Shown: positions 668-54,933, counted from the first letter of the stretch. The stretch is 64,000 bases of DNA from an uncultured virus (IMG/VR IMGVR_UViG_3300027896_000016) (IMGVR_UViG_3300027896_000016); one strand, 5' to 3'. Notes: generated by a model not told the origin, from the letters alone. Made by a program: numbers and translations.

Positions 668-919
668 CTAGACCAAATGTCTTTGCCAATGCTTTTCATC
701 CAAATCACCCATTGCCCAATTTTTATGAGCCAAAATTCTTAGACTTATTGAGATTAGTTTATCTAGTTCTTTTTCTGTAGGGCATCCGTGTTGTCTAAAT
801 ATTAGAATCCAGCCAAAACATTTTGGGCATTTTGTGACTATACCGTATTCATCTTCATAGAGAATAACCGAATCTTTTGGCAAATTACAAAGAGGGCATT
901 CGCTGTATTCATTGTTCAA
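668..919 (-). CDS. small Cys-rich protein, possibly HIT-like zinc-binding
   Basis: CPLC..ILYED..CPKC..H pattern; last gene of the minus arm. Confidence 0.55.
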   Translation of the reverse strand: MNNEYSECPLCNLPKDSVILYEDEYGIVTKCPKCFGWILIFRQHGCPTEKELDKLISISLRILAHKNWAMGDLDEKHWQRHLV

Positions 920-1268
920 TTAGCTTCCTTTCATCTATTGTGAAAGGTCCAGAGGTTTTGGTCTTAACGCACAAAATCGCTAGATCTTTCACCGTTAGCC
1001 TATAGTCTTCTTTTGCGTCGGCATTGTTCAAGAAAAAGTCTTTGCCGTATAATGTTTTGCTTTCAGGTTCCCATATTAGACTATAATCTTGCGTATTAAG
1101 TTCGACCCAGGCATGACCGCCGCGTTTGTATTGTCCGGTATTGGCGTCTTTTACTCTTGCCGTGCCGTGAATTACAAAAACGCTGTCAAAATCGTCCAAG
1201 TAGGGAAGATTTTTGTCTCCCGATATGACGGCTTGCATGACTGTATGAAAACAGTGACCGTAGGGCAT
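909..1268 (-). CDS. putative transglutaminase/papain-fold protein
   Basis: GHCF ... VIHG ... GHAWVE ... WEP: Cys-His-acidic triad spacing. Confidence 0.55.
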   Translation of the reverse strand: MPYGHCFHTVMQAVISGDKNLPYLDDFDSVFVIHGTARVKDANTGQYKRGGHAWVELNTQDYSLIWEPESKTLYGKDFFLNNADAKEDYRLTVKDLAILCVKTKTSGPFTIDERKLIEQ

Positions 1269-1287
1269 TGCGCGCCACCAATTTTTG

Positions 1288-3354
1288 CTATTCTATCTTT
1301 ATGGTTTCTTTTCTTAATTTTTGCAAGCCATTTTCGAGAAATTCGGTCATTCCGTGCATACCAACAGCCGTTATTAAATTAGTTAGTTTATAGAAATTTG
1401 CCGCCATTCTTGAATGATAATCTCCAAGGGCACTTTCAAAAGCCCTGCCGCAATCGCCATAATCTGTCACGTAATGCGTACATTCGTGAACGGCGACTTC
1501 GTAGATACGTTCAAGATCCTGCCTGTCAGTGGGCCAAAAAATTTCATCGCCGCGCATTGGATTGAACAATATCCAATTATTGTCTTTTATTTGCAATCCA
1601 GCCAATTCTGAGTCTAGGACAAAGCCGGTATTGAAAGTTGTCTTGTCGCAGTTCATTTGTATAAGTATAAATCGTACTAACTCTGTCCAGAATTTTGCAA
1701 GACGCAGCGTATTTGGTTTCATATTTTCTAAATGTAATCCAATAGGTATCTTAGTATCGCCCTTATTATTTAAGATTAAGAATTCTGGCTTCCAAGTTAG
1801 TAATTTAAGTGCCGATTCTATATGACCTTGGCCAACGAATTCTATGTCTAGCAAGACTTTTGCTATATCATAGCTAACATTTGCGAGCAAATTATCATCT
1901 TTTCTTTCAGCAAAATGGCCATATGCCTGTGCTGCAATAGCGCCCAAAATTTTCGGCGGAATGATTCTTACTTTTCTTTTCTTGATAAATTCTGTTTCTG
2001 TCAGCAAATTAACTAATTCTGCCGACCTCGTATCGAAATTTATATTATCAGACCGGGGATCTGACCAAATTTCTTTGATTTTCTTGGATTTTTCTTGTAA
2101 AATTACAAATTTATCTCGTGCCAGTTTTTCAAGAAATTCGCCAATGCCTTCTCTTAATGTAACATTAGTAAAGTCCAGTCTATTTGGCATTAGAACATCT
2201 ATGGATTTTACTTTTAGTTTGACCGTAACTTTAGCGTCACAATTTCCGGCGTATTTACTAAACATGTGTTGGCCGTCGCTTGTCATGACATATAGTCGCG
2301 CACTTTGATCTCTATCACTTAGTTTTATTTTTCGTGATGTAATATCACAAAAATCGACTAAATTTCTCGCATGTACTTCCATATCAATGCGCCGACCGGG
2401 ATCGAAATCTGCCGCGACTTCTTTTTCTGTAACTGCATCTTCATAATTATCATAACCCTTGACCAAGAATTTCACACTAGGTAGCCGACATCTTTGAATA
2501 TAAGCTATTGCGTCAGAAGTATTAACGGCACGATCTTTGTTCATTATGACACGAATATAGGTTCCCTTGAACATCTCTTTTGTTTTACTTACAGTAATCT
2601 CTAGATTATCTTCCGGGGCGCTTTGGGCTTCGTTATCTAGTGTTCGAATATAATAAGAAATATGTGGCAATAGCAACAATTCTTTGGCCTTGCCGAAACC
2701 GCCAGTAGTTCCCTTGCCGCGTTTGCCAGTTTCACCCAAGGAGAATAGCAGATTCTTTAACTCTTCTTCCGTCATTCCTGAACCATTGTCCATGCATGTT
2801 GCAGTTATGGTATTATCGCCATTGTCTTTTACTTCGCAAAGTATTATCGTTGCACCGGCATCAACAGAGTTTTGTATGGCTTCCCGCCACCAACAGATTT
2901 TCCAGTCTGAACCATATTCGCGCTTCATATTATCAAAAAAGTTTGGCGAGAATTTCCAAGAAATTTTTGGGTTTGCTGCAAATTTTGTGTTGCCGATTTT
3001 TACTAATATTGCCTTGCGCCCATCTGACAAAACTCTTTCGCCCATTTGATAAATGTATCCAGCCATAGCCAAAGCTCGCAGCTTGGCATAGCCCGGTGTG
3101 TCAGAGACGGCCATGTATAGGCCCGTCCGTAGCTGGCGCGGGTCGAAGTCCCGTTTGACAAAGGTTATGTTATCGGGCATGGCGTTTTTTCTCACTTCTT
3201 TTTGGGGTTCTCTATATTGTCTTATAATTTCATCTTGTTCATTAGCTTTTTTATCATAATAATCTTTTTCATCTTCTCTAGCGTGTACTTGCATATGTCG
3301 ATAGTATCTTCGTAATTCTAAATGATCCCTTAAAGTTAGTTTACCTTCCGCCAT
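1288..3354 (-). CDS. GHKL (HATPase_c) ATPase fused to a C-terminal HExxH zincin-like domain
   Basis: REAIQNSVDA, DNGSGM, TGGFGKA GHKL boxes; VAVHECTHY near the C-terminus. Confidence 0.85.
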   Translation of the reverse strand: MAEGKLTLRDHLELRRYYRHMQVHAREDEKDYYDKKANEQDEIIRQYREPQKEVRKNAMPDNITFVKRDFDPRQLRTGLYMAVSDTPGYAKLRALAMAGYIYQMGERVLSDGRKAILVKIGNTKFAANPKISWKFSPNFFDNMKREYGSDWKICWWREAIQNSVDAGATIILCEVKDNGDNTITATCMDNGSGMTEEELKNLLFSLGETGKRGKGTTGGFGKAKELLLLPHISYYIRTLDNEAQSAPEDNLEITVSKTKEMFKGTYIRVIMNKDRAVNTSDAIAYIQRCRLPSVKFLVKGYDNYEDAVTEKEVAADFDPGRRIDMEVHARNLVDFCDITSRKIKLSDRDQSARLYVMTSDGQHMFSKYAGNCDAKVTVKLKVKSIDVLMPNRLDFTNVTLREGIGEFLEKLARDKFVILQEKSKKIKEIWSDPRSDNINFDTRSAELVNLLTETEFIKKRKVRIIPPKILGAIAAQAYGHFAERKDDNLLANVSYDIAKVLLDIEFVGQGHIESALKLLTWKPEFLILNNKGDTKIPIGLHLENMKPNTLRLAKFWTELVRFILIQMNCDKTTFNTGFVLDSELAGLQIKDNNWILFNPMRGDEIFWPTDRQDLERIYEVAVHECTHYVTDYGDCGRAFESALGDYHSRMAANFYKLTNLITAVGMHGMTEFLENGLQKLRKETIKIE

Positions 3355-3520
3355 TTTTATTCACTTTCTTAACAATCCTCGCGCCGCCAGCGATGATAAA
3401 GCCAAGCAATATAATTCCCATGATTCCAATAAAGAACCAAGGTTGAGGATCGGCTTGCTCATAAATATTAGGCAAGACTTTGGCCGGTTTGGGATCTTTG
3501 CTAAAAAGGCCGCTTATCAT
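3341..3520 (-). CDS. small single-TM membrane protein (59 aa, not in ORF track)
   Basis: MISGLFSK...WFFIGIMGIILLGFIIAGGARIVKK; RBS GGAG upstream. Confidence 0.7.
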   Translation of the reverse strand: MISGLFSKDPKPAKVLPNIYEQADPQPWFFIGIMGIILLGFIIAGGARIVKKVNKNGGR

Positions 3521-3521
3521 G

Positions 3522-4700
3522 TTAGTCTCCTTCGGGATTTAGAATAACCTTAATATGCCAGTGTTTTAAGAAATTGTCCAATATATCTCGAATTAAATCT
3601 GTACTAAATGAAGAACCAGCATTTGATCTACTAAGTATTTCGGTATATTGCCTTACTGTTATTGTATTATAATTAATATTATATTCTTTAAAGAAATCAA
3701 ATAAAGTTTGTCCGTGTATTTCAAGAGGTCTAGGTCTAATATAAGAACCAGAATTTTCAAATTTTTTGTTATCTATTTTGTCTACTATTTGGTCTATAAA
3801 TACTTTTTTGCCAAAATCAATTGATTGCATCCATTGACCGATGCGCTTTTTATATTCAGGTTTAGGGTTACTATTAGAATGACCTTCTATGTCTACAAGT
3901 TCCCAAAATTTGTCAGTATAATCAGTAGCATTATGGTATCTCGGTACAAATGCCGCTGTTACATGCGGTTTATTTTCCTGGTCGCGCAACGAAATAACGT
4001 TCATGTTATATTCTAAAACTTGGTCCCAATAAGAGGCAATACAATGATTCATTCGATTGCCTTCAACCGTGATATCATTCTCAGTCGTTATTTCTTGTAT
4101 TGTCCAATTGTCGGGCCAAGTATAAAGTATATTTGGCGTGTAAATCGGCTCATAGACTAAATTTTTGCCTTTTTCGGCTTGGGCTTTGTGCCAGCGAATA
4201 CTGGCAAGTTGGGCTTGTATAAAGTCATAGCTGGCAAGTCTAGGATGTTCGGCGTTGTACCAGTCTATTAGTGTCCAAATTGTGCCTCTTAAATCTGATC
4301 GATCAACATAATCAATTGTTTCTTCGTCATGATAATTTAAAATTGGAAATTCTTGATCATATACAATTTCACCCTTAATCATATATTTTTTAGTTCTATG
4401 TTTAATTATTTGTATTGCTACCCAATCTATCATTTCTTTAGCTATATTAACATCATTTAGCTTTAATACTCTTAAAAATGCTTCTTCATAATAATCTAAT
4501 TTTATTTCTTTTGGTTCAAAACTGGCCGCTAAATCTTGTATTTGGCCCAAATTTAGCCCGCGATTTTTGCGCAGTTCGTTAACTATCTTGCCCTGTATCT
4601 TAGAATCTGACAGAAATTTGACAAAATCTACAATTTCTTGCGAGATGCCCAATCTTGCAAGATAATCTTCGACGGGATTTTGGCGATATCTATAGCGCAT
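3522..4700 (-). CDS. PcfJ-like domain protein (paralog 1)
   Basis: EGNRMNHCIASY ... ISLRD..NKPHVT motif; N-terminal MRYRYRQNP. Confidence 0.75.
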   Translation of the reverse strand: MRYRYRQNPVEDYLARLGISQEIVDFVKFLSDSKIQGKIVNELRKNRGLNLGQIQDLAASFEPKEIKLDYYEEAFLRVLKLNDVNIAKEMIDWVAIQIIKHRTKKYMIKGEIVYDQEFPILNYHDEETIDYVDRSDLRGTIWTLIDWYNAEHPRLASYDFIQAQLASIRWHKAQAEKGKNLVYEPIYTPNILYTWPDNWTIQEITTENDITVEGNRMNHCIASYWDQVLEYNMNVISLRDQENKPHVTAAFVPRYHNATDYTDKFWELVDIEGHSNSNPKPEYKKRIGQWMQSIDFGKKVFIDQIVDKIDNKKFENSGSYIRPRPLEIHGQTLFDFFKEYNINYNTITVRQYTEILSRSNAGSSFSTDLIRDILDNFLKHWHIKVILNPEGD

Positions 4701-4996
4701 TATTCGTCCGCTAAAACTGTCTTGCCACAGTTATTGTCAAGATACTCTTGGGCGGCTTGTATCATTTCACTGACCGTTGCGCCACATTCGCAATCTACTG
4801 TTTCGTCAGTCGAGCCGCTTTGGCAAATTTTTCGGTCATCCATAGCGTCTCTGTGGCCACTATAACCAAATAATCTCGCTAAGAAAGGAAAATCCCAATC
4901 AGTTTGAAAGATTTCGATAATCTCGCCACGGCATTCTATGCCATAACCACAAGGAACGCCACAATCTCTCCCATCGACCAAAGTAATCTTTTTCAT
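4700..4996 (-). CDS. hypothetical Cys-containing protein
   Basis: start MKKITL from ATGA overlap with the upstream stop; QTDWDFP and TVDCECG motifs. Confidence 0.7.
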   Translation of the reverse strand: MKKITLVDGRDCGVPCGYGIECRGEIIEIFQTDWDFPFLARLFGYSGHRDAMDDRKICQSGSTDETVDCECGATVSEMIQAAQEYLDNNCGKTVLADE

Positions 4997-6120
4997 GATC
5001 GCCTCATGCGCCGAATTTTTTGGTATGCCCGGTGCCACTCACGAATTGACTGTAATTTTTGTGCCTTACTTATTTTTCGGGGCGGATTACTTCTTTTCGC
5101 CGGATCGTAAACCGGTACATTTTTAAATCCGGCAGTTTCGCCATCTCTAAAGCAAGTTTTAAGTGATACATGACGTATATGACCGCTATCCATTTCGATA
5201 GTAGCTTGATTATTATGATAAGGAGCCTTTCCTATTCTTACGATTGTCCCCCAACGATCCGGTTCGTACCAATTAGGACATACACGATCACCAATTCTAA
5301 ATGGTTCTTTACTAAGTTTTCTCTTTCCAAAATAAGACGGATTCTCGCCAATGCGCCGATATTGCCATTTATCGTCGCCCGCGCTATCAGTCGTAAATTT
5401 TTCGGGCACGTAGATATTTTTTGGCCGCGCTATGTTAAACTCGCCGCGTGAAATGGCTTTTAGGTCGTCTATAGAATAATTGTTATTAAATAGGTCTTTA
5501 ATTTTTATGGAATAATTCGTGCCCGTGCTTAATTCTTCTACATATATTTCCTCGTTTGATTCTTCTAAATTATCTACATCGTCGTCTCTTAACTCTCTTA
5601 GTTCATTTTCCCAATTTTCGAAACTTTGTATTCGATCTCTCGCTTCGGCGTCAAAAACCCATGTTTGAAAACTGAGTCCAACTACTCTTATCCAGCCGTC
5701 GGATTCCATAGCGTATTCTCTTGGATCTTCGCCTAACACTATCAAATGCCAAATGCCTTCCGTATTGCCGCCAGCATCAAGAATTTTCTTGATTGTAATA
5801 AAATCTTCTGGATCGAAATAGCCTTTATTTTCTACAAGTCTTAGTTTAAGTATATTCGCTTCGCTAATCTGGCCATTTTTTATGGCCTTATTTATATCGC
5901 CTTTATTAGCTTCTATCGCGTCGGCAATATCTGCAATATTTTCTACAGTATCAAAAAATTCCAGATATTTCGGATTATAACCAAATTCAAAGTCAAAATC
6001 TATTTCCTCGAAACTTATGCCCAACATTGACTGATAGGCTTCTCTTTCGTGATTAGTATCGACAACATCACCATCGCAATAGATGGTCTGATTGATATCC
6101 TCTATCCAGTATTCGCCCAT
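4993..6120 (-). CDS. hypothetical acidic protein with possible C-terminal SH3/KOW-like domain
   Basis: 375-aa ORF; FRIGDRV..WGTIVRI; ENP and RSNP motifs; basic tail. Confidence 0.7.
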   Translation of the reverse strand: MGEYWIEDINQTIYCDGDVVDTNHEREAYQSMLGISFEEIDFDFEFGYNPKYLEFFDTVENIADIADAIEANKGDINKAIKNGQISEANILKLRLVENKGYFDPEDFITIKKILDAGGNTEGIWHLIVLGEDPREYAMESDGWIRVVGLSFQTWVFDAEARDRIQSFENWENELRELRDDDVDNLEESNEEIYVEELSTGTNYSIKIKDLFNNNYSIDDLKAISRGEFNIARPKNIYVPEKFTTDSAGDDKWQYRRIGENPSYFGKRKLSKEPFRIGDRVCPNWYEPDRWGTIVRIGKAPYHNNQATIEMDSGHIRHVSLKTCFRDGETAGFKNVPVYDPAKRSNPPRKISKAQKLQSIREWHRAYQKIRRMRRS

Positions 6121-6132
6121 TGGCGCGTATCC

Positions 6133-6429
6133 TTAATATTGATTATATGACTTGGAATATTCTTCTAATAAAGAATTTAAAAAATCTCCAATATTTTCAT
6201 CTTTATTTCCTTTTCTTTTCATTTCTTTATCAATAATATGCATTATAAAAAGAGAATCGTTAATTTTATATTCACAAAAATCCTTAATCTCTTTAAGATG
6301 TCTCATAGAATATCTTTTATGTTCAACAAAATCTTCTGCTCTATGTTCTTTTTCAAGAATTTTTTCAAATTCTTCTACCGAATTTCTATAATCCTTATCA
6401 TTTGGAGCACCCCAAATACCGTAACTCAT
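6133..6429 (-). CDS. hypothetical protein
   Basis: RBS AGGAG; fits operon spacing. Confidence 0.65.
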   Translation of the reverse strand: MSYGIWGAPNDKDYRNSVEEFEKILEKEHRAEDFVEHKRYSMRHLKEIKDFCEYKINDSLFIMHIIDKEMKRKGNKDENIGDFLNSLLEEYSKSYNQY

Positions 6430-6446
6430 GTTATTCTCCTAATTTA

Positions 6447-7295
6447 TTAATTTAGGCCCAAAATTTCCATGAAGTCATTAATCAAAATTTCGGCAATCGC
6501 ATCTTTGCCCCGATCTATCTCGCGGACTTCCTTGACTGTATAGAATCTCTTTCTAAATTGATCCAGTCGCCGCACGTCGTGAATTTCTTTTTCTATACCT
6601 ATGTCTCTAAGTGATTCGGGCCTATTGACGCTCAAATAATCGGCCATTAGGTCTATAAGATTGAGAAGATTGGCATTTTTGTAGTCTATATAGAAAGTCT
6701 CGCCGCTGCGCTTGACTATGGCCTGTCTGTCGCCACGCTTGCGCTTCGTGACTATTATTAATCGGGGCGCTTTGACGCCGTATTTTTCGGCAACTTGGGC
6801 CAATAAATTATTGTAACTGGCCAGCGCAACGTCGGCGGTGCTTAATGCGCGAATTTTTTTGGGCCTACTTAAATCTTTTTGAACACTTGCCCCGAGAGGG
6901 ATTTTATAAGTGATATTTTTAATCTTGCGCATTTCTATAAGATAATTCATTGCTTCGGCAAAGGAATTAAATACTTCTTTAAAATACTTATCGTGTTTGC
7001 CTGTTTTACTTATGTCTTTAATAAGCAAAAAATAATGCGTCATTTCGTGAACGATATCTAAAAGAGTTAGCTTATTATAGTCAGCAAAGCTTAAATTGTC
7101 AATATCTTTGCGCTCGCCAACGTCGATATTGGGTGTTGGCACTTTGGCGAATTTGCTTAATTCTGTCACGACAGCTTTAACGCTCATAAACGGTATATTG
7201 GTCAAATTCTCGCGTTCGACCATTTGCCGAATGTTTTCGGGCATGTCGGCCAAAAGGCTTTTGTATTCTTTTAGGTCATTGTTTATGTCGGGCAT
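6447..7295 (-). CDS. putative SprT-like zincin metalloprotein
   Basis: IVHEMTHYF ... GKHDKYF; second half looks like a degenerate repeat of the first. Confidence 0.6.
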   Translation of the reverse strand: MPDINNDLKEYKSLLADMPENIRQMVERENLTNIPFMSVKAVVTELSKFAKVPTPNIDVGERKDIDNLSFADYNKLTLLDIVHEMTHYFLLIKDISKTGKHDKYFKEVFNSFAEAMNYLIEMRKIKNITYKIPLGASVQKDLSRPKKIRALSTADVALASYNNLLAQVAEKYGVKAPRLIIVTKRKRGDRQAIVKRSGETFYIDYKNANLLNLIDLMADYLSVNRPESLRDIGIEKEIHDVRRLDQFRKRFYTVKEVREIDRGKDAIAEILINDFMEILGLN

Positions 7296-7314
7296 GGCCG
7301 GTTCTCCCGATTGC

Positions 7315-7653
7315 TTATTCTATGTTAATCCCCGCTGGCATGATCCATAGTCTCTTTATATTCTCGTTCATAGATAGTTTATTCATAACACCTAGACTAT
7401 CATCGAACATGACATCTATAGACAATTGTTTTATAACGCTCGTCTTAAGATCAATATTTTGGTCGCACATGTAAAGTTTATGATATCTTATACCGTAAGT
7501 CTTAAGATCTGCCATAGTCTCTTCACGAATAAATTCTGGTCTTAAAGTAATTACGTAAACCTTGTGGCCCATTACTTTGAAAGCTCTTGACAAGGCCGCG
7601 AAAAATTCTGGCATTCCAGTGATTGTACCATCTATGTCAATGCCGATGTTCAT
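7315..7653 (-). CDS. minimal HAD-superfamily phosphatase
   Basis: IGIDIDGTI motif I, ITLR motif II, K, MFDD motif IV. Confidence 0.8.
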   Translation of the reverse strand: MNIGIDIDGTITGMPEFFAALSRAFKVMGHKVYVITLRPEFIREETMADLKTYGIRYHKLYMCDQNIDLKTSVIKQLSIDVMFDDSLGVMNKLSMNENIKRLWIMPAGINIE

Positions 7654-8309
7654 GCTAAATACGCCTTTAAGTATTTTAGATTTTCGGCGTTAAGTATTTT
7701 TCCAAAAATATCGCCAAGATATGTCTTAAAATACGCTTTTCTTTCGTCGTCTTCAATATCTAAAAATTCACTATAAAGTTTACTTAAAAAGAATATATAT
7801 TTAGCATTATTTTTAAGATCGTAAATAACATAAATACTGCCCATTTTAAGATAATTTCTCGTATCTTTAGATTTTCGCGTACACCAAACTGTTCCTTGAC
7901 TTTCATATATAACACTTGCTATACTCGGGCATTTGATTATTAAATAATCTTTGTCTTTATATAATATTTTGCTATCTTTATGCAATATAATTTCACTTAA
8001 TTCTGTTCTAACAGTAGGTTTATATTCATAATAAAGATCTTTTAGCGAAAATATATTATATTTGCCTATATCGCGCTGTTTTGGTTCTAGATTTTGTTTA
8101 TTTTGGTCAAACCATGTTAAAATTCTCCTAATTACACTCAAAGGTACTGGAAAATAACATTGTTGCAATTGTCTTAAATTATCACCTAGCCATAAAACAT
8201 AAGATTTTTTTGGCGTAGGATCTGCCAAAAAAATATGTTCTATAGTCTCTGAGTCAAAGAACTCAGAGAGAATCTCTTGCTTGCTAGGATTTTGTAGGTA
8301 ATTTAACAT
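7650..8309 (-). CDS. hypothetical phage protein with GTxWC motif
   Basis: ADPTPKKSYVLWL and QGTVWCTR; N-terminal MLNYLQNP. Confidence 0.7.
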   Translation of the reverse strand: MLNYLQNPSKQEILSEFFDSETIEHIFLADPTPKKSYVLWLGDNLRQLQQCYFPVPLSVIRRILTWFDQNKQNLEPKQRDIGKYNIFSLKDLYYEYKPTVRTELSEIILHKDSKILYKDKDYLIIKCPSIASVIYESQGTVWCTRKSKDTRNYLKMGSIYVIYDLKNNAKYIFFLSKLYSEFLDIEDDERKAYFKTYLGDIFGKILNAENLKYLKAYLA

Positions 8310-8315
8310 AATTTG

Positions 8316-8486
8316 CTACGCATTAGGCGGTGCATTAAAAGAACTTGGTATCAGTGTCGATAGGCACCAAAGAGACAGACCCATGTACATCATGGACCAA
8401 GTGCCGGTTTGTGCCTGGAATAGACCAAGTACGAAACAAATTGTTGCGGCTAACCGCAAGATCCAACTGATAATTGATCCGTTCAT
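8316..8486 (-). CDS. small two-TM membrane protein (56 aa, not in ORF track)
   Basis: RBS AGGAG; MNGSIISWILRLAATICFVLGLF... Confidence 0.7.
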   Translation of the reverse strand: MNGSIISWILRLAATICFVLGLFQAQTGTWSMMYMGLSLWCLSTLIPSSFNAPPNA

Positions 8487-8506
8487 TGCTTTCTCCTAAT
8501 TTGGGC

Positions 8507-8680
8507 CTAGTCTTCACTTCTCGTAAGCCAAAACGCACCGCCACCGATGACGGTAACAATAAGCAAAGCAATTAGCACCCATGCAATAGTTTTGGTTTTT
8601 TGCTGTTCTTGTAAAGTAATAGCATCTTCTTGGGCCTTAACTTCTTTGGCCGATGGACCTTTGGTCGCTTTGCCTAACAT
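8507..8680 (-). CDS. small single-TM membrane protein (57 aa, not in ORF track)
   Basis: RBS GGGAG; MLGKATKG...IAWVLIALLIVTVIGGGAFWL. Confidence 0.7.
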   Translation of the reverse strand: MLGKATKGPSAKEVKAQEDAITLQEQQKTKTIAWVLIALLIVTVIGGGAFWLTRSED

Positions 8681-8735
8681 GTTAATTCTCCCAAATTAGT
8701 GTATGAACAGAGTTTCTCTATTATTACTTTTTTAT

Positions 8736-9020
8736 TTAGGTTTCACGTCGTTTCCTGCGTTTTCTATATCTACGCAATCTATTCTGTGCCAATTTACGTT
8801 TTTTCTTATTCATCGCCTTACCGGCAAACATCCCTAATGCACCCATACCGATTACTAAACCTACACCAATTGCCGCCCAAGGCCAGCTAATATTTGCTTT
8901 TGACGGTATAAATTGACCACCGGCAGAACCACCGCCCGGTGCTTTAGCTGTTGCTGCTGCGGCAGTTTGGGCTACTGCCATTGCCGCTCCTACTGCTGCT
9001 AGAATTAACGGGAGTGGCAT
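8736..9020 (-). CDS. membrane protein with Arg-rich tail
   Basis: start MPLPLIL after GGAG; TM followed by QNRLRRYRKRRKRR. Confidence 0.75.
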   Translation of the reverse strand: MPLPLILAAVGAAMAVAQTAAAATAKAPGGGSAGGQFIPSKANISWPWAAIGVGLVIGMGALGMFAGKAMNKKKRKLAQNRLRRYRKRRKRRET

Positions 9021-9606: not shown

Positions 9607-9613
9607 AAATTGC

Positions 9614-10126: not shown

Positions 10127-10145
10127 TTGCTATACTCCTATTCTA

Positions 10146-43397: not shown

Positions 43398-43399
43398 GA

Positions 43400-45460: not shown

Positions 45461-45510
45461 GCTAACCTATATTACCGATGTAATACAAATATAGCCAAAC
45501 AATAATAAGA

Positions 45511-46152: not shown

Positions 46153-46364
46153 GGTTTACACTCCATTCCAAGAAAGGTATCTGGTTTTCTGCGCGAAAAA
46201 CCGTGTTATTTAGATCCTTTCTTGTCCGACAAAGCGTTAAAACTAAATTTATCCCACAAGAGATAAATAATTAATCTTAACGTTTTGTGTCTTTCCTATT
46301 TGACACTCTTGCTCGCTACTAGGCGCATTGGAGCAAAACTACATTTTTCCCAATGGGATGAATA

Positions 46365-47873: not shown

Positions 47874-47885
47874 CAAGAAACTCCC

Positions 47886-49031
47886 TTATCGTTCAAGCCA
47901 CTCTCGTACCTTTAACGTCCCATCTGGCAACGTAATAGTAGATTTTCCATCTGCCGTACTTGCCAGAGTCGGCTTTTTACCTCCATGTTCACCAGTTGTA
48001 TGAACCCAAATAGTGCCCGCCTTGTTTGATTTCATTCCAGAAGGAATAGTATAACTTATTGCCGGTGCTTTTCCAAGCGCAGCAAAAATCTCAATATCGT
48101 CTTTGTTCCCCATACCTTTGATATTAATAACGTTCATCTTTTCAGGCAAGGCATTGTGGAATTTACAATAACGCTTAAATCCTTGAATAAATTTCTTTAT
48201 AAGTGATCTATTGCCAGTCTTATAAACATAATCCATTGCCATTGAGATATCCCTTGGTACTTTACCCAACTTCTGTTGATATAAATTATAAATACTCTTA
48301 AACTCGCCCCGATAAACTTCTTGCGGGTTCCTTACAACTAGTAGTGAGGCATTTGCACTTATGCCCCTTTTATGACGACCATTAGCGCGTGTCAAAACGG
48401 ATTGCACTTCCGTTCCAACTTTGCACTTTCCGGTTCTAGGTGAATAGTACTTCTTAGGACAACCAATTACAAATTTATGTCTTTCGCTTCCATGTGGTGC
48501 TATTGTCCGAAAACTTCTTGAATCAAATTCTCGCGGACTTGCAATTCTGTGACGATAGTATTTACCGTGTTCCCCAATATCCCCCATTCTCTTTCGTGCT
48601 TCAATCGCCCGACTTACTTCTTCGCGCCGTCGCCGTCTTTCTTCCATTGATAAAGGCCGTTCCATTCTGGCACGAATTGCGGGATTTTCGTCAATTTCAT
48701 CTTCGCGTTCGCAAATTTCGGGATCGTCATTCCTACCATAAATTCCTAAATTTTCGGATTTATCTCTACTTATTTCATGAGCATCGGCTCTACCTTGATA
48801 ATATTGTGATAGCTCATGTTCATCACTTGCTTCTTTTTGGTCTGCCTCTAATTGTGCTTTTTTACGTTCAAAATCATGATATTCTTTACCTGGATTTCTT
48901 GAAACATCTAACAATCGCTGAATTTCGTCGGTTTCTCGTTCAGACAAATTGCCACGCGAAACCCAATGACGGGCTAATTGGGAATCGCCCATTCGGGCGG
49001 CACGTCGCGCTTTTTCGAAGAATAAATTCAT
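47886..49031 (-). CDS. basic multi-segment virion-type protein
   Basis: SRNP, DENP, VRNP motifs between segments. Confidence 0.75.
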   Translation of the reverse strand: MNLFFEKARRAARMGDSQLARHWVSRGNLSERETDEIQRLLDVSRNPGKEYHDFERKKAQLEADQKEASDEHELSQYYQGRADAHEISRDKSENLGIYGRNDDPEICEREDEIDENPAIRARMERPLSMEERRRRREEVSRAIEARKRMGDIGEHGKYYRHRIASPREFDSRSFRTIAPHGSERHKFVIGCPKKYYSPRTGKCKVGTEVQSVLTRANGRHKRGISANASLLVVRNPQEVYRGEFKSIYNLYQQKLGKVPRDISMAMDYVYKTGNRSLIKKFIQGFKRYCKFHNALPEKMNVINIKGMGNKDDIEIFAALGKAPAISYTIPSGMKSNKAGTIWVHTTGEHGGKKPTLASTADGKSTITLPDGTLKVREWLER

Positions 49032-49033
49032 GA

Positions 49034-49996
49034 TTATTCCTCAGAATCGTCTAGCTCATCTTCATCAAGAAATTCATCATTTTCTTCGATTTTCTTAGCT
49101 TTCTTATGTTTAAGATAGAAATAACCACCTACCCCAACAACTGTAACTATACCCAATCCCGCCAAAATCTTTTTCCATGTCCAAAATGACTGAGCAATTA
49201 CCGCTGGAATCGGCGCGACTTGGGTTTTTCCTAAATCAGCCATATTGCCTAGCCCCTGTTCTGGAACTACTTCGTCACGTTTTTGAATCGCTGTTATTAC
49301 TTCTTTTTCTTCTTCGGGTTCAGGAATAACCTCTTCTTTCATTTCTTTTCTAACAAAAGACTTGGCCAAAGAAACCACGCCAGCTTTTTCTGAATTCTTT
49401 CTTGTTATAATACTCGCCTTTGCAAATTTATTTATATCTATATTTCCTATATTGCTATAAACAATATAAATATCCGTCAAACGCCAATCAAATTTCCTTT
49501 CTTTTGATAAACGGGCGCGTTGCTTAATCGCAAAATCTATTAGTTCTGATTCTTCTTTATTAAATAATTCAGGAAGCTTCTTACGCGCTTCAATTGCAGT
49601 CAAGAATAAACAAAGCTTGTTTACCCATTTGCTTTGATCTGAACTGAAAAATGGCCATTCTAATTTGTTTACACATTCTGCCGGATTCCCCATATCTTTT
49701 GCAAGTTTAATTAAAAAATCCGTTACTGTACAAATAGTAAATTGCAAATCTTCTAGACTAATATTACTGTTTTTATTTGCAAAATACCAATTTGGTAATA
49801 TGATTAATACGGAATCATAAATATTAGTATCTTTCAAAGTATTATATAAAAACTCTAACGCTACTTGAGCTTTTTCTGGCTTAAATTGGGGAAATTTTGA
49901 CCCAATAAAGCCGACATAATCCTTACTCAGATCAACCGAAGTATCAATTTGATCTTCGATATCGACTTCTTCAGCTTTCTTTACTTCTTCAGGCAT
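49034..49996 (-). CDS. protein with C-terminal TM
   Basis: QGLGNMADLG, TM, KHKK, acidic tail. Confidence 0.75.
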   Translation of the reverse strand: MPEEVKKAEEVDIEDQIDTSVDLSKDYVGFIGSKFPQFKPEKAQVALEFLYNTLKDTNIYDSVLIILPNWYFANKNSNISLEDLQFTICTVTDFLIKLAKDMGNPAECVNKLEWPFFSSDQSKWVNKLCLFLTAIEARKKLPELFNKEESELIDFAIKQRARLSKERKFDWRLTDIYIVYSNIGNIDINKFAKASIITRKNSEKAGVVSLAKSFVRKEMKEEVIPEPEEEKEVITAIQKRDEVVPEQGLGNMADLGKTQVAPIPAVIAQSFWTWKKILAGLGIVTVVGVGGYFYLKHKKAKKIEENDEFLDEDELDDSEE

Positions 49997-50021
49997 TTTA
50001 GCGCCCTTTATTTAAGGCCAT

Positions 50022-51542
50022 TTACGCCTTTTTCGCAGTTCGCTTTGACATTGATTTTACGAAAACGTAGCCAACAATTGCTGCAATTCCAGCCCCTAAA
50101 GCAATCGCTGTCCAATTTGTCTGTTGTTTCGGAGGAATTATAGGAGTTATTGTTTGCGGAACTTCTTCACCCTTAATAGCGGCAACACTATTCTTAACCA
50201 TATTCGCCAAACTAACCCTTGAACCATCATCCTTCACAAAGAAAATGCCATTTTCTGTATAATCAACCTTGGTTTCACCTAATGCACCTAAACCTCGAAG
50301 AACGGCAGATTTTACGGATTCGTTCAAGCCACCTAAACCATAAAGTGAACCACTATCACCTTCATCAAAATCATATTCGGTTTCATCAGCTAGTGGAACG
50401 CCACTTGTATCGTCGCCATACATTTTTTGCAGGGCATATTCTTCATCAACAATATCAGTATCTAGCGTTTCAGCTTCATAATCTGGACTAATACGATCTT
50501 CATCCGAAATAGATACGCCTTCTTCTGACTGAAATTCTACGTCGGTAGTAACAGTCGGCAAGGACGTTTTAGGCATAGGTTCACCACTTTGAGATTGAAT
50601 ATAAACAGTCGGCTTAATTATAATTTCAGGTCTTGCGCCTGTCGTTTGATCCTGTTCAGGTGTAATGTCCATTGTTTCATCTTGAGATTCTATTGCCTGA
50701 TCGTCAAAATATTGGGATTCATCTTGAGAAACCACTTCATAAGAAGCCGGCGTTGCTTGTTCAGTATAATCTTGCTGCATTAATTGAACGGCTTCTTGTG
50801 GAACCGAAGAATAATCATATTGAGAAGATTGAGCCTGTTGCTGATATGGATTAATGGCTTGCTGTTGATACTGATATGGATCAACTACTTGCTGTTGATA
50901 TTGATACGGATCGACTATTTGCTGACTTGTATCAACAATTTGCTGACCAGTCGTATCATATACAGTAGTATCAACAGGAATTTGTTCAGTTGTGGTACTA
51001 TCATCAGGACCAACCGGAGTTACGTTAGTAGTAATTGCCGTAGATTGTGGCAATGTTGGTAATGTTCCACCGCCACCACCGTATTTTGCCTGTTGTTTCG
51101 CCAATTTTGCGGCAGCTTTTGCAGCAGCGGCATCTAATTTTGCTTTTTGTTTTGCAGCAGCAGCATCGGCTTTTGCTTGCGCTTTGGCCAATTTTGCCTG
51201 TTGCTTCATTGCGGCTAATTGAGCTTTATAGTCGGCAGCAGTAAGAGCAGTCGTAGTAGTCGTAGTATCAGTAGTTCCCGTAGTATCAGTAGTTCCCGTA
51301 GTATCAGTAGTTCCCGTAGTATCAGTAGTTCCCGTAGTATCAGTAGTAGCGGTTGTAGCAGTTGTAGACGTTGCATATTTTGCCAATTTAGCAGCTTGTT
51401 TTGCCGCTTTTGCTGTAGCCTTTGCTTCTTTCTTTGCAGCTTTTGCTGTAGCCTTTGCAGCCTTTTTTGCGGCAGCAACCGTAGGATCTTTCTTACCTAA
51501 ACCTTCAATATCATTCAAAAAACCGAGTCCAAAAAGTGCCAT
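50022..51542 (-). CDS. low-complexity membrane-anchored protein
   Basis: AK-rich, TTDTTG repeats, Q/Y-rich and acidic segments, four GLG motifs, C-terminal TM. Confidence 0.8.
   Translation of the reverse strand: MALFGLGFLNDIEGLGKKDPTVAAAKKAAKATAKAAKKEAKATAKAAKQAAKLAKYATSTTATTATTDTTGTTDTTGTTDTTGTTDTTGTTDTTTTTTALTAADYKAQLAAMKQQAKLAKAQAKADAAAAKQKAKLDAAAAKAAAKLAKQQAKYGGGGGTLPTLPQSTAITTNVTPVGPDDSTTTEQIPVDTTVYDTTGQQIVDTSQQIVDPYQYQQQVVDPYQYQQQAINPYQQQAQSSQYDYSSVPQEAVQLMQQDYTEQATPASYEVVSQDESQYFDDQAIESQDETMDITPEQDQTTGARPEIIIKPTVYIQSQSGEPMPKTSLPTVTTDVEFQSEEGVSISDEDRISPDYEAETLDTDIVDEEYALQKMYGDDTSGVPLADETEYDFDEGDSGSLYGLGGLNESVKSAVLRGLGALGETKVDYTENGIFFVKDDGSRVSLANMVKNSVAAIKGEEVPQTITPIIPPKQQTNWTAIALGAGIAAIVGYVFVKSMSKRTAKKA
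51261..51347. repeat. 18-bp tandem repeat, 4 full copies plus a partial
   Basis: CGTAGTATCAGTAGTTCC units. Confidence 0.95.
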
Positions 51543-51561
51543 TTTTAGCCCCTTATTAAAA

Positions 51562-52098
51562 TTACTCCAAAGAGCCTTTCCAAACTTTTAGGCCAAAAAA
51601 TCTACCGGGATACCAACCAAGATATGATTCTTTCACAGTACAATCCGCTGGAATAAGTTTTTTCCCATATTTTACTACTGGAAAAACATGTGAATACTCA
51701 TCTGGTCTTTCTTTATCCGCCTTAACACATACAAAATAAGTTCTTAGTCCAATACATTCAGCCAAGGTGGTAAATAAAATGACTAAATCATCACAATCCC
51801 CGGCTTTTCTTTGGAGCGTCCTAATGGGACTTTGGAGCAATTCGACCTTATAAGGGTCATATACATATCTAACATAATTTTTAACAAAATCAAAAATACA
51901 TTGTAATTCACCAATTTTATCTTTATAATCACAATTTTCAATAAGTTTAGCAGCCAATCTTAAAAAGAAATCCCAATTTTTCTTACTTTCAGTGACTAAC
52001 TCTTGCATTTTTTGAATTGTATCTTCAGTTCCTCTCCAATCCGAAGGGATGTCGTATTCCTCTGAGTGACTACCTATATTTCTGAGAAAATTTAACAT
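51562..52098 (-). CDS. transglutaminase-like cysteine protease
   Basis: VRYVYDP...GDCDD...SHVF...ADCT: Cys-His-Asp triad. Confidence 0.85.
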   Translation of the reverse strand: MLNFLRNIGSHSEEYDIPSDWRGTEDTIQKMQELVTESKKNWDFFLRLAAKLIENCDYKDKIGELQCIFDFVKNYVRYVYDPYKVELLQSPIRTLQRKAGDCDDLVILFTTLAECIGLRTYFVCVKADKERPDEYSHVFPVVKYGKKLIPADCTVKESYLGWYPGRFFGLKVWKGSLE

Positions 52099-52102
52099 TT
52101 AT

Positions 52103-52516
52103 TTAGCCCGCTGAAATTTTTACCTTGGGTATTTCTAGCTTAACTGGTGCAACCTCTTCTTTCGGGCCAAATGACAACATGTTCAAACTTTTACAACCCG
52201 AACCTTGGCACTTTACCTCAAGACTAAAATCAGATTTGGTATTCTTTACGTAAACTTGTGCCATAAATCGGCCACACATGCGGCATTGTAATGAATAAGG
52301 TATTAAAGCTTTTGTCTCGTTATTGTATATTCTTGCATCTTCAAGTTTTTTCGTCGTGTCGATCTTGGGCGAAAACGGAAAAATATTCAAAGCCTTGCAA
52401 TGTGAACGTTGACATTTTACCTTAAGTATAAAATCAGATTCTTCTGCTAAAATAGAGACATTAGCAAAAAATCTGGCACATTTAGAACATCGAAGTTCTT
52501 TAACCAGAGGCTTCAC
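52103..52516 (-). CDS. tandem Mu Com-like zinc-ribbon protein
   Basis: two copies of [RQ]CxxCxRF...VKCQxxxCKxLN. Confidence 0.7.
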   Translation of the reverse strand: MKPLVKELRCSKCARFFANVSILAEESDFILKVKCQRSHCKALNIFPFSPKIDTTKKLEDARIYNNETKALIPYSLQCRMCGRFMAQVYVKNTKSDFSLEVKCQGSGCKSLNMLSFGPKEEVAPVKLEIPKVKISAG

Positions 52517-52538
52517 GCATTGCCCCTTAAATAAATTA

Positions 52539-52988
52539 TTAAACGATTTTTGCCTTTACTGTCTTTACCGCTACTCCATTATCAAAATTGTCTGTTGGAA
52601 CATCTCCATCTGAATCATCGTCGTCATCGTCATCTTCGTCGTCTTCATCACCATCTTCAATAGGCTGTTCTACAAATTCTTCATCATGAGATGCTAACAC
52701 TAAAAGAGCGCAATCTTTCGGACTTAGCGGCTTATCCACAGCGGCCATTTTACATATTTCTAGCAAAGAATTTCCTAGCCAAGTAGCGATTCCAGAAACT
52801 TCTTCAAGATTTTCGGCCAAATCCTCAATATCTAATCCTTTCAAAATACTATTTAATTTCACAATATTTTTATTCAAAATCGCTAATTGTTCAAGAATAG
52901 CCGAATTTTCACTTTGAGAACCTTTTATTGCCGCCTCTAAAAGTCCTGCAACAATATTAGGCTTCTGATTCTGTTGATTCTGATTCAT
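52539..52988 (-). CDS. coiled-coil protein with acidic tail
   Basis: probable start MNQNQQ after GGGGA. Confidence 0.65.
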   Translation of the reverse strand: MNQNQQNQKPNIVAGLLEAAIKGSQSENSAILEQLAILNKNIVKLNSILKGLDIEDLAENLEEVSGIATWLGNSLLEICKMAAVDKPLSPKDCALLVLASHDEEFVEQPIEDGDEDDEDDDDDDDSDGDVPTDNFDNGVAVKTVKAKIV

Positions 52989-54933
52989 CGGAATCTTCCC
53001 CTTCATCTTCGTCACCATCCGGCGACTCTTCACCATTTTCCTCTTTTTTAATATCTTCAAATTCGGACTTAACAATAGCAAAACAACTTATACCCCATTT
53101 AATTACAGCCGGATTCTTAAGAAGCGCAACTAAATTAGCAATAAGATCTGGATTGGCATATTTGTTCAAAAAATCTACTACTTGCGGTTTACCAGTAAAA
53201 GACATTATTTCTTCGAGCATTTCTCGCGGTAATTTCGTTATAGCAAATTCAACCCAATTCGGTTCATTCTGCATAATTTTCGCGTCTTCGATCATCATAG
53301 CAAGTAATTCGTTTGTGTATTTATGCCAAATCATTTCTTTTTCTTGAACTGAAAATTGTGGCGCTTCAACAACTTGAACCTCTTCTTGTTTTGGCTGTTC
53401 TTGAGCCACAGGTGCCGGTTCCGATGTTTGCACTTGTGCTTGAGGCGTAACCCCTTGCTGCACCTGGACTTGTGGCACAACCAGCTTTGATTCCTGCGTT
53501 TTCTCCTTCCTTATCATAGTCGGTTGTGGTGCTGTCTCGGTTCTATTCAAAAGTCCAGGTTTTTCTTCTGTCACTACTTCAAGCATTTTTGGCGGTTTTA
53601 CGATAATTGGCTGAATCGGCTGAACTGACTGAACTGGCTGCATTTGCGGTGGATTCTGAACACCAGTCAATTCAGGCATTCCCGATTTTCCAGCGAAACT
53701 AGCAATTAACGGAACCGCCTCACTAGCCAAATCCTTTATTACTTCACCAGCGTCTTTGATCCAAGATTGTTTGCCGCTAGCATCGGCGGCATGATCCAAT
53801 ATCACTGTCATCATTTTCATTAAACTTTCGGACTTATCTTTCTGAGATGCAATTATCATCTCAGTCATAGCCTTCATCGTTTCCATACTACGGGCCATTG
53901 ATTCGGCCTGAACACGACTCATATCGGCTTTTACTTTTTCGAGACTTTCGCTAGATCTTCCATCACGATCAGCCTGAATTTTCATAGCTTCAATTTGGGT
54001 TCGCATATTTTCAGATGCCTGTTGCGATTGCATTTTGAATGTTTCTGCGATCATATTACTCTGTTGTTTCATGGCTTCGATCATTACTTGCTGAGAATTT
54101 GCAGTATTTGTGCTTTCTTTTGAATTAGCAATAGCAGCAACGAGAGCTTCAAAACCCTTAGAAACGTCGGCTTTTAGTGCTATAATCTTTTCTTCTTGCG
54201 CCCTGAATTTTTCGTCGATTTTCTTCTGTTCATCGACATCCTTCATGAATTCTTTAATAGTATCGTCTACATTTGGTTCATTAGACTTATCTTTTTCTAG
54301 TTCTTTTAGCTCTTTTTCTAATTCAACAAGCCGCTTTTTTCTATGGGTTTCCTGAATTTTTTGCTCTAAATCCTGGCAACGATCTGATTCAATTGTCTTA
54401 AATTTGCCATTTCCACCGTTATCACCAGCACCAGAATCTAATTTATCCTCAGCTTCAATGGGATCGCCGGAAACTTCGGTCATGAAATTGCTGTGTATAG
54501 CGCCGGAATCATCATAAACTAGAATCCTGTACTTGCCACCACCGAACAATTTTCGTATTGTTTCTTCTAATTCAAGTTTATTTGAAGGCTTTGTTTCAGA
54601 ATGTAAATCGCGCTCTGGATAAATCTTGCCACTTTTAGGATGCTTATAAGTAGGTTTATTAACTTTCACGACCCATCCTTCATAATCTGTCGTTCCAATA
54701 AGCTGCAAAATATCCCAATTATTGCGAATTACACTGCCAATTCCAATAGGTCTATCAGGTTCTCGCAAAAAAGATGGAACTTCAACCCGATCCCTTTCGC
54801 GTTCTCGTATTGATTCCCGCCGATCTTCCCGAATTTTCCTTTCTTTGTCTTCTTCGGTTTCTTGAATAGGTTGAACTTCTGTCTCTTTAATCTCCCTCTT
54901 AATTGTAATCGCTTTCTCTTTTTCTTCGGCCAA
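52957..54933 (-). CDS. large coiled-coil protein, first gene of the late arm
   Basis: TTG start after AAGGAGG; M/Q/E/K-rich heptads; GGGKYRI. Confidence 0.75.
   Translation of the reverse strand: MAEEKEKAITIKREIKETEVQPIQETEEDKERKIREDRRESIRERERDRVEVPSFLREPDRPIGIGSVIRNNWDILQLIGTTDYEGWVVKVNKPTYKHPKSGKIYPERDLHSETKPSNKLELEETIRKLFGGGKYRILVYDDSGAIHSNFMTEVSGDPIEAEDKLDSGAGDNGGNGKFKTIESDRCQDLEQKIQETHRKKRLVELEKELKELEKDKSNEPNVDDTIKEFMKDVDEQKKIDEKFRAQEEKIIALKADVSKGFEALVAAIANSKESTNTANSQQVMIEAMKQQSNMIAETFKMQSQQASENMRTQIEAMKIQADRDGRSSESLEKVKADMSRVQAESMARSMETMKAMTEMIIASQKDKSESLMKMMTVILDHAADASGKQSWIKDAGEVIKDLASEAVPLIASFAGKSGMPELTGVQNPPQMQPVQSVQPIQPIIVKPPKMLEVVTEEKPGLLNRTETAPQPTMIRKEKTQESKLVVPQVQVQQGVTPQAQVQTSEPAPVAQEQPKQEEVQVVEAPQFSVQEKEMIWHKYTNELLAMMIEDAKIMQNEPNWVEFAITKLPREMLEEIMSFTGKPQVVDFLNKYANPDLIANLVALLKNPAVIKWGISCFAIVKSEFEDIKKEENGEESPDGDEDEGEDSDESESTESEA

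Follow-up and report, generated by a model that had tools for sequence, protein, structure and literature searches.

The subject of this report is a stretch of 64,000 nucleotides (nt), hereafter the window, from a contig of an uncultured virus (IMG/VR record IMGVR_UViG_3300027896_000016) that is at least 134,025 bases (b) long; the results below cover the part of the contig that lies in the window. The window carries a continuous minus-strand gene array, the arm, and two neighbouring genes of this arm were found, at the level of predicted fold, to be candidate coat genes encoding a 213-amino-acid (aa) single jelly-roll (SJR) protein and a 292-aa double jelly-roll (DJR) protein. With moderate confidence, we read the genome as that of a large tailless virus with a DJR capsid, belonging to an undescribed lineage related to Salisaeta phage SSIP-1, and the host is probably bacterial. 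A tailless virus had been proposed before from the DNA of the window alone (referred to below as the original prediction), and taken as a whole that idea has probably been largely upheld. At 134 kb or more, the genome would be several times as large as that of any such prokaryotic virus known.

Candidate coat genes at the level of predicted fold

The original prediction had named three all-beta proteins of the arm as capsid candidates and had set a jelly-roll fold beforehand as the structural check. The three genes are:

45511-46152, minus strand: 213-aa SJR protein, candidate penton or second capsid protein (AlphaFold2 fold)
44471-45349, minus strand: 292-aa DJR protein, best candidate for the major capsid protein (AlphaFold2 fold)
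43766-44455, minus strand: 229-aa beta-rich candidate (weak beta-sandwich matches)

Relatives of these proteins were sought in 37 metagenome loci (L-numbers), recovered by scanning metagenome contigs with the SJR alignment, and in three IMG/VR records (G001-G003). For the SJR protein, a word-indexed search gave only five close relatives, and a profile search against 1.84 billion cluster representatives gave 1,334 matches at E<=1e-3, of which 482 were at E<=1e-10; the family is strongly conserved. None of 102 SJR members matched a Pfam family at E below 0.05, and the best match of the profile to solved structures by sequence had an E of 0.62, so that the claim of an undescribed lineage stood in that neither a Pfam model nor a solved relative was found by sequence. 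The AlphaFold2 model, built from a 102-sequence alignment, was confident (predicted local distance difference test score, pLDDT, 91.7; predicted template-modelling score, pTM, 0.83) and was all-beta with one helix. Foldseek returned nothing at E<=1e-3 with this model; its top rows included SPV1 (E 9.8e-3, probability 0.99), SH1, SPMV and HHIV-2. The best structural scores were those of capsid proteins of membrane-containing viruses (HHIV-2 7.8, SPV1 7.7, HCIV-1 6.6), with non-viral beta-sandwiches and tailed-phage cement proteins scoring 4.9-5.5 in the same list. From the model, we read the 213-aa protein as a single jelly roll that is most like the capsid proteins of membrane-containing viruses, though not uniquely so.

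The DJR protein had two close relatives, and more distant ones were reached by profile. P[FY]WLT occurs twice in its alignment, as an internal repeat around residues 38 and 178, and its AlphaFold2 model (22 sequences; pLDDT 89.7, pTM 0.86) consisted of two eight-stranded sandwiches linked by a helix. The model aligned to true DJR capsid proteins across both domains, and comparison with VIA-align gave the following values (score, then aligned positions):

STIV major capsid protein: 11.2, 225
Three GH172/DUF2961 enzymes: 11.0, 10.2 and 10.2, about 230
PRD1 P3: 9.0, 236
PM2 P2: 8.8, 207
phiCjT23: 8.2, 186
PBCV-1: 8.0, 237
FLiP: 7.9, 191

In a Foldseek search against the PDB, the two-sandwich proteins SGBP-B, PHM and SIDT1 ranked first with low template-modelling (TM) scores, and STIV was matched at E 1.9e-4. 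In BFVD, just two matches had a TM score above 0.5, namely a 268-aa uncultured-virus protein and I1ZBI0 (256 aa, 0.57/0.64), which was the best full-length structural match and which, from its 256-aa length only, we infer to be SSIP-1 gp47. On the strength of the model, the 292-aa protein is read as a double jelly roll of the capsid/GH172 type.

Thus, two of the three candidates fold as jelly rolls. The third, the 229-aa protein, yielded only a poor Atlas model (pLDDT 0.57), with weak beta-sandwich matches at residues about 95-222. Four relatives of it were found among the fetched loci (L006, L008, L026 and L036), its comparison with the SJR and DJR families by hhalign was not significant, and neither were profile comparisons among all three candidates.

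The conserved module and the search for packaging genes

A DJR-family open reading frame (ORF) lay immediately downstream of the SJR gene in 17 of the 25 loci that had at least 1 kb of sequence there, across gaps of 31-545 nt, and some of the eight loci without one were second SJR copies or distant relatives. When 90 ORFs of the window were compared with the loci using tblastn, the genes or parts that travelled together were the transglutaminase-like gene, the two domains of a 381-aa protein, the C-terminal part of an Arg-rich protein, and the SJR and DJR genes; the 229-aa gene co-travelled more rarely, and the 669-aa and 1193-aa proteins did so in one locus only. The transglutaminase-like gene, basic proteins, SJR and DJR were common to the window and G001, G002 and G003, and no further capsid candidate was conserved across the relatives. 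As to copy number, L015 (10666-15567) and G002 (986-3737) each had three tandem DJR paralogs, and both G003 and the 70.8-kb contig Ga0272441_10000775 had two SJR copies, far apart. Upstream of the coat genes, the window contains:

46365-47876, minus strand: Arg-rich protein of 503 aa, C-terminal part hydrophobic and Gly-rich, tail acidic (Lys plus Arg, K+R, 30%)
47886-49031, minus strand: 381-aa basic protein with small conserved domains at residues 157-236 and 280-381 (matches in related loci)
49034-51542, minus strand: a pair of low-complexity proteins of 320 and 506 aa with a single membrane helix each, at the C-terminus (hydropathy, residues 277-295 and 477-495), neither with a Pfam or PHROG family
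51562-52098, minus strand: 178-aa transglutaminase-like (papain-fold) protein (Pfam Transglut_core E 7e-8)
52957-54966, minus strand: 669-aa coiled-coil low-complexity protein, the arm's first gene (no Pfam or PHROG family)

The Arg-rich core protein of the original prediction was confirmed as a 503-aa product conserved in six relatives, and it is a candidate for a membrane-anchored protein that condenses DNA. Its architecture recurs directly upstream of the SJR gene in L001, L003, L005, L006, L007 and G001 (366-429 aa, K+R 0.20-0.32), where the shared build comprises an N-terminus like MIGFVFNPP, a long basic stretch with repeated [RK][RK]NP, then a hydrophobic part rich in Gly, and a tail that is acidic; conservation of the C-terminal part was also seen by BLAST. 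The 381-aa protein matched 9 ORFs in 7 related loci, and in G001 its two domains were split over separate Lys-rich proteins of 345 and 217 aa (K+R 0.30 and 0.28). The transglutaminase-like gene, conserved in five metagenome loci (L006, L015, L016, L018 and L021) and in G001-G003, may encode a virion-associated protease or lytic enzyme. A 634-aa ORF in L015 is 24% identical over 510 aa to the 669-aa protein, whose position in G001 is occupied by a 622-aa ORF. The 669-aa protein might be a scaffold or a capsid tape measure.

A short basic motif, [RK][RKQY]N[PF], was observed within the first 20 residues of 4 of the 74 arm ORFs (3522-4700, 10146-11384, 11623-12483 and 18045-18665, two of which are PcfJ paralogs) where shuffled sequences gave an expectation of 0.12, and it is repeated many times inside the basic core-like proteins (46365-47876 and its relatives). 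It could be a cleavage site or a DNA-binding spacer.

Among the three IMG/VR records, G001 (59,782 b) has an exact 144-nt terminal repeat and a CheckV completeness of 100%, and G002 (49,453 b) and G003 (68,222 b) are 64% and 94% complete. G001 encodes an integrase, a methylase, DUF5131, Pyr_excise, a PAPS reductase, a radical-SAM protein, FliS and the transglutaminase-like protein, and G003 encodes a D5-type primase-helicase, a Sak4-like ATPase, an XPD-type helicase, ThyX, GroES, an integrase and glycosyltransferases. In nine of the metagenome loci (147 ORFs, Pfam), Tad3, endonuclease VII, TnpB, and beta-helix and BNR spike proteins were found. Prokaryotic host signals in the window or its relatives include Tad3, IsrB and TnpB, and two of the genes in the relatives point to bacterial hosts: a homologue of the FliS flagellar chaperone in G001 (L045:6368-6745, E 2e-35) and a Tad3 anti-Thoeris protein (L017:17473-17991, E 3e-36). 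The SJR family was found in only three records among 2.9 million IMG/VR contigs, a lower bound given that this search was limited by its pattern, and in one contig of a metagenome-assembled genome (MAG). Of 401 genomes sampled from the phylum of that MAG, one matched the SJR profile, through the MAG's own 4.8-kb contig.

We scanned the 69 arm ORFs of at least 80 aa, and with 14 others a total of 83 window ORFs, against PHROGs and Pfam; any match at all was obtained for 15 of the 69 in PHROGs and for 11 of the 69 in Pfam. Terminase, portal, HK97 capsid, sheath and tape-measure families, whose absence the original prediction had stated, were not among these matches. Protease/scaffold, tube, baseplate and FtsK/A32 families did not appear among them either, nor was an FtsK-HerA (A32/P9-type) packaging ATPase, a conjugation ATPase or a relaxase detected in the arm. 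By sequence profiles, the 83 window ORFs likewise gave no HK97-fold capsid, TerL, portal or tail family, just fibre and collar domains. The claim that a Walker A P-loop protein is missing holds for the arm, where two strings fit the pattern and both are implausible (the membrane motif GLLGLGKT, and residue 357 in the C-terminal tail of the 381-aa protein), and fails for the window, whose sole genuine P-loop is that of a plus-strand AAA+ gene (58061-59635). This gene was considered as a packaging motor and rejected: it is a classic AAA protein with 27-29% identity to 'AAA-ATPase' genes of Corndog-like mycobacteriophages, which are tailed, and neither it nor the window's GHKL ATPase was found in the complete relative G001.

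The relatives gave the same picture. Pfam found no tailed-phage or FtsK hallmark in the 147 ORFs of the nine metagenome loci. The IMG/VR records were scanned with Pfam (131 ORFs of G001 and G002, 74 of G003) and PHROGs (150 ORFs of G001 and G003, 76 of them from G001), and for G001 the Pfam scan was extended to the 88 other six-frame ORFs that reach 120 aa; no terminase, portal, HK97 capsid, tail or FtsK/A32 family was found in G001 (complete), G002 or G003 (94% complete). Two ORFs of G001, of '422 aa' and '311 aa', proved to be spurious greedy calls in GC-rich DNA, beneath which DUF5131 and Pyr_excise lie. Six-frame searches with the hidden Markov models (HMMs) PF03237 (Terminase_6N), PF03354 (TerL_ATPase), PF05065 (Phage_capsid), PF04860 (Phage_portal) and PF01580 (FtsK_SpoIIIE), which were positive in 3 to 12 of 14 control genomes, exceeded a family cut-off in 0 of the 3 records; the only match at E <= 0.01 was a 12-bit Terminase_6N in G002, inside a ResIII helicase gene. 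In G001, no plausible ORF had a Walker A, and Pfam found no P-loop family.

By shared genes, SSIP-1 appears to be the closest characterised virus. SSIP-1 is described in the parts of the literature consulted as a membrane-containing, tailless icosahedral bacterial phage of about 100 nm with T=49, a 44-kb circular genome and two types of capsid protein, and as unclassified (PMC6260650, PMC6356626, PMC4958249); with 44 kb it is the largest prokaryotic entry of the DJR lineage in Table 1 of PMC6260650. Its genome is at most one third the length of the window's contig. Its gp34, a structural protein according to GenBank, is homologous to the window's transglutaminase-like protein (E 2e-15, 27% over 117 aa) and matches ten related loci besides. 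The series of structural genes gp45 (210 aa), gp46 (211 aa), gp47 (256 aa) and gp48 (132 aa) mirrors the size and order of the 213-, 292-, 229- and 111-aa proteins of the window. The best SSIP-1 match of the DJR profile (A4) was gp47 (hmmsearch E 0.0027 among the ORFs of that genome; hhalign E 3.5e-4 over 83 columns), and gp46 topped the list for the SJR profile (A2) below significance (E 0.24; hhalign E 0.025, probability 2%). No gene comparable to that of the 503-aa basic protein was seen among the annotated genes of SSIP-1.

Other jelly-roll viruses stand further off. Portogloboviridae have single jelly-roll capsids, an internal membrane and a nucleoprotein, and SPV1 reportedly has no packaging ATPase; the original prediction had drawn on them for comparison. 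As the nearest virus they give way to SSIP-1, judged by shared genes. The larger coat candidate of the window is a double and not a single jelly roll, an architecture nearer to a DJR capsid protein with an SJR penton or second coat protein than to Portogloboviridae. SPV1 also differs in its ~20-kb circular genome and hyperthermophilic archaeal host, as against a contig of at least 134,025 b, relatives of 49-68 kb and bacterial-type accessory genes, and no common genes were detected. Helvetiavirae (HHIV-2, HCIV-1, SH1 and P23-77), with two SJR capsid proteins, have genomes of 16-30 kb and a packaging ATPase. For HHIV-2, Table 1 of PMC6260650 lists 30 kbp. No sequence similarity to the window's capsid candidates was seen in the DJR viruses STIV (Turriviridae), PRD1 (Tectiviridae), PM2 (Corticoviridae) and FLiP/phiCjT23 (Finnlakeviridae). 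Metagenomic prokaryotic DJR viruses are given as ~7-18 kb, most with an FtsK-HerA packaging ATPase, in the portions consulted of Yutin et al. (2018; PMC5894146), one Discussion sentence of which implies that the Odin and FLiP groups seem to be without it, and ANME-1 DJR viruses as 10-11 kb in those of PMC9894754. The window's contig, in contrast, is 134 kb long or longer, and its arm yielded no ATPase of this type. Our search of the full-text literature, as main texts without supplements, met with no account of a prokaryotic virus that has a jelly-roll capsid and more than 50 kb of genome, which is not proof that there is none, and a megablast search of 40000-55000 against 50,697 phage records gave no match.

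Layout of the arm and its other genes

The arm extends from 54966 to 668 and holds 74 ORFs (>=50 aa kept; 51,492 coding bases). The remaining features are listed here:

54967-56041, no strand: non-coding region of ~1.07 kb, with a switch of transcription direction and GC skew between two arms
40845-43397, minus strand: three His-rich fibre paralogs (HxH repeat) whose N-terminus resembles a phage tail collar, candidate spikes (PHROG tail-fibre/collar)
26538-40790, minus strand: spike and fibre block (translations, PHROG/Pfam, relatives)
22580-25900, minus strand: two IsrB-type elements (PLMP plus RuvC, no HNH) in the arm (Pfam RRXRR E 5e-32 and 4e-33; phrog_32617)
15506-22540, minus strand: cluster of small membrane proteins, candidate virion-membrane proteins (hydropathy; no Pfam or PHROG family)
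668-14963, minus strand: distal arm, where small membrane proteins are interspersed with accessory genes and genes of DNA metabolism (Pfam, PHROG)
14421-14963, minus strand: RuvC (Pfam/PHROG)
3522-4700 and 10146-11384, minus strand: two PcfJ-like proteins (Pfam/PHROG)
9005-9606, minus strand: CxxCxxCC pair (Pfam/PHROG)
7315-7653, minus strand: HAD/PNK-like protein (Pfam/PHROG)
1288-3354, minus strand: GHKL ATPase, 688 aa (HATPase_c_3; Pfam/PHROG)
58061-59635, plus strand: classic AAA+ ATPase, 524 aa (PF00004 plus lid; phrog_8638)

The original prediction had described a complete 54-kb virion arm. Its continuity, 668-54966, is as described, and the arm, though not the contig, is complete in the window; its purely virion character was not confirmed, given that the structural block covers ~26.5-55 kb only and that in 0.7-26 kb small membrane proteins are interleaved with RuvC, two PcfJ, two CxxCxxCC, HAD/PNK-like and GHKL ATPase genes and two IsrB-type elements. 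GC skew was negative across the arm and positive from ~56 kb. The left end of the arm converges, as had been stated, on a plus-strand ORF (32-379), and to the right of the arm plus-strand genes start at 56042. The divergent promoter postulated between the arms rests on gene orientation only, since sigma70-like sites in 54967-56041 were at chance level (5 found vs 4.8 expected). Shine-Dalgarno-like motifs occurred upstream of 39 of the 74 arm ORFs, as against 10% of random 17-mers from the same strand, an excess that fits a prokaryotic host. There were no tRNA genes in the window, and Rfam gave nothing at gathering score for the whole window and nothing at E<=1 on 54900-57700 or 22400-26400.

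Membrane helices were predicted in 14 of the 74 arm ORFs by a strict hydropathy rule, a number that does not bear out the earlier count of about 25 single-pass membrane proteins; a loose rule, which over-calls and flags beta-rich fibres too, gave 31 of 74, 24 of them with a single helix. Four adjacent paralogs in 18910-20519 (minus strand) encode small single-pass membrane proteins with a common N-terminal helix and the motif GPGLLGLGK.

Encoded in the spike and fibre block at 26538-40790 are an Ala/Gly/Thr-rich protein of 994 aa and a protein of 1193 aa, three paralogs of 245 aa and another three of ~250 aa, a fibre-tip-like protein of 116 aa and a protein of 400 aa. The 1193-aa protein contains S-P-D-G-x-T-W (Asp-box-like) repeats and is 45% identical over 117 aa to L015, and a 1074-aa ORF at the same position in G001/L016 gave weak matches to BNR_2 (E 1.7e-5) and BNR (E 2.8e-4), below the Pfam cut-offs. 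The 116-aa protein (30797-31147) matches tail-fibre and virion PHROGs, and the His-rich paralogs match tail-fibre and collar PHROG families at E 1e-7 to 4e-8 and Pfam Collar at 22.4 bits, below its cut-off. Tandem paralogs come in three sets of three, at 28482-30797 (about 250 aa), 35547-37783 (245 aa) and 40845-43397 (258-294 aa), which suggests heterotrimeric or alternative receptor-binding parts. The 400-aa protein (26538-27740, minus strand) is beta-rich, has no family match, and its two ends are alike (...PDVVFAVPKSDN...NFDILMMRVHSI... and ...PDIVIPISKNN...NADIVYMRIPSI...), so that an internal duplication may have occurred.

Of the two IsrB-type copies, one is intact (24615-25649, 344 aa) and the other is split (22966-23604, 212 aa, and 22580-22870, 96 aa). 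Mean column identity between them is 84%, a figure that takes in ~270 nt upstream of the ORF; this upstream stretch may be a guide (omega) RNA, although no Rfam family matched. To the right of the arm, three strong terminator-like hairpins with stems of 13-14 bp followed by a T run were observed on the plus strand at 56510-56541, 56685-56715 and 56886-56916 (within 56505-56931), at intervals of 176 and 201 nt, with a similar TTTTTTGTTATA tail after each and without an Rfam match at E<=1; they could terminate two small non-coding transcripts.

Interpretation and significance

If the reading as a tailless DJR virus is right, the particle would be an icosahedral capsid built from jelly-roll proteins in place of an HK97 head and tail. 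By analogy with PRD1, STIV and PM2, the DJR protein would form pseudo-hexameric trimers and the SJR protein pentons or a second species of coat protein. The small membrane proteins would line an internal lipid vesicle, and the fibre, collar, beta-helix-like, Asp-box and Ala/Gly-rich proteins would make up the vertex spikes. By analogy with SPV1, the basic proteins may condense the DNA, with one of them tethering it to the membrane, and the capsid may close round the condensate without a terminase or an A32/FtsK-type motor. The case for such motor-free enclosure comes from the lack of a P-loop motor in the arm and in the complete relatives, together with the conserved basic proteins beside the coat genes; this step could be wrong should a host ATPase, the remaining 70 kb or an unrecognised fold supply the motor. 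Scaling by volume from SSIP-1, we estimate that a particle holding 134 kb would measure roughly 150 nm. The broader proposal, of a widespread undescribed prokaryotic lineage of about 50 to more than 134 kb that has a tailless DJR and SJR capsid, is distantly kin to SSIP-1, encodes no motor and condenses its DNA with membrane-anchored Arg/Lys-rich proteins, is put forward tentatively, as possible rather than probable.

Several points weigh against a tailless DJR virus. The ~70 kb of the contig outside the window could hold head and packaging genes, and 'no terminase' is a result for the window that does not extend to the whole virus. Those relatives whose genomes are complete stand far off (39% and 27-30% SJR identity) and have much less DNA, and their gene content may not transfer. 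The Atlas clusters nearest to the SJR protein bear automatic 'Uroviricota' labels. Four arm proteins (30797-31147 and the three His-rich ones at 40845-43397) match tail-fibre or collar PHROGs; in this respect the claim that there is no tail needs qualifying, although no tail machinery was detected, and the four matches are to fibre or spike domains, which also serve tailless viruses as spikes. For the capsid proteins, similarity to SSIP-1 is marginal, with an hhalign probability of 37% for gp47 and no significance in the case of gp46, and one structural protein of SSIP-1, gp40 (AAA_25), contains a P-loop and lacks a counterpart both in the window and in G001. Particles, lipids and virion proteins are all predicted here, from genes and modelled folds.

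A very divergent member of the Caudoviricetes would account for several of these observations if its head, portal and terminase genes lay in the remaining ~70 kb or had diverged too far, and if its jelly rolls were cement, decoration, baseplate or fibre parts. The coverage of 64 of at least 134 kb leaves room for this, as do the fibre and collar matches, the Uroviricota labels, the jelly-roll cement proteins of tailed phages among the SJR matches, the many tail-fibre and carbohydrate-binding module proteins, at low TM, in the BFVD list for the DJR model, and the many replication and accessory genes common to tailed phages. We consider it unlikely, given that TerL is normally the easiest phage gene to detect and that in G001 (complete) and G003 (near-complete), both of which have the module of SJR, DJR, transglutaminase-like and basic proteins, neither TerL nor portal nor HK97 turned up with Pfam, PHROGs or six-frame HMMs; a credible Walker A is missing from G001, and the alignment of the DJR model to true DJR capsid proteins extends over both domains.

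It is also conceivable that the virus represents a new kind, with an unrecognised protein of another sort as its shell, and that the SJR and DJR proteins are spike, lectin or glycosidase (GH172-like) accessories. The top Foldseek matches of the DJR model are non-capsid two-beta-sandwich proteins, the genes adjoin the large fibre and spike block, and the three DJR paralogs in each of L015 and G002 would also suit variable receptor-binding proteins. The 292-aa protein, however, has no Pfam GH172 match, lies in a viral structural gene context, and is about as long as compact DJR capsid proteins (269 aa in the PM2 chain, 323 aa in the STIV chain), being shorter than the matched GH172 chains (369-447 aa); the SJR family is strongly conserved and tightly linked to the basic core-like proteins, and the relatives offer no other conserved capsid candidate, which makes this explanation rather improbable in our view. 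Highly improbable is a non-viral large mobile element, plasmid or conjugative, with genes for surface proteins: PcfJ-like genes are known from conjugative plasmids, and many membrane proteins with no packaging genes would fit it, but it leaves unexplained the jelly-roll capsid-like pair, the relatives classed as viral genomes (one with terminal repeats), the phage-type genes of those relatives (Tad3, EndoVII, DUF5131, integrase, D5 primase) and the arm scans in which no conjugation ATPase or relaxase was detected.

Should the reading as a tailless DJR virus hold, a lineage of at least 134 kb would change the size range and the ecological weight given to tailless phages. The prokaryotic jelly-roll-capsid viruses that we found in print are small, with 7-18 kb in the metagenomic DJR viruses of PMC5894146 and 44 kb in SSIP-1, and large genomes had been regarded as the domain of tailed phages. 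The 1,334 SJR cluster representatives, set against three IMG/VR records, suggest that virus detection keyed to hallmark genes largely misses this lineage. If it has no packaging ATPase, it would offer a way to study the motor-free enclosure of genomes of 100 kb or more. On the broader proposal, the lineage would be a prokaryotic counterpart, in size and core organisation, to the large eukaryotic DJR viruses. It would also bear on how DJR viruses became large, the giant viruses of eukaryotes among them.

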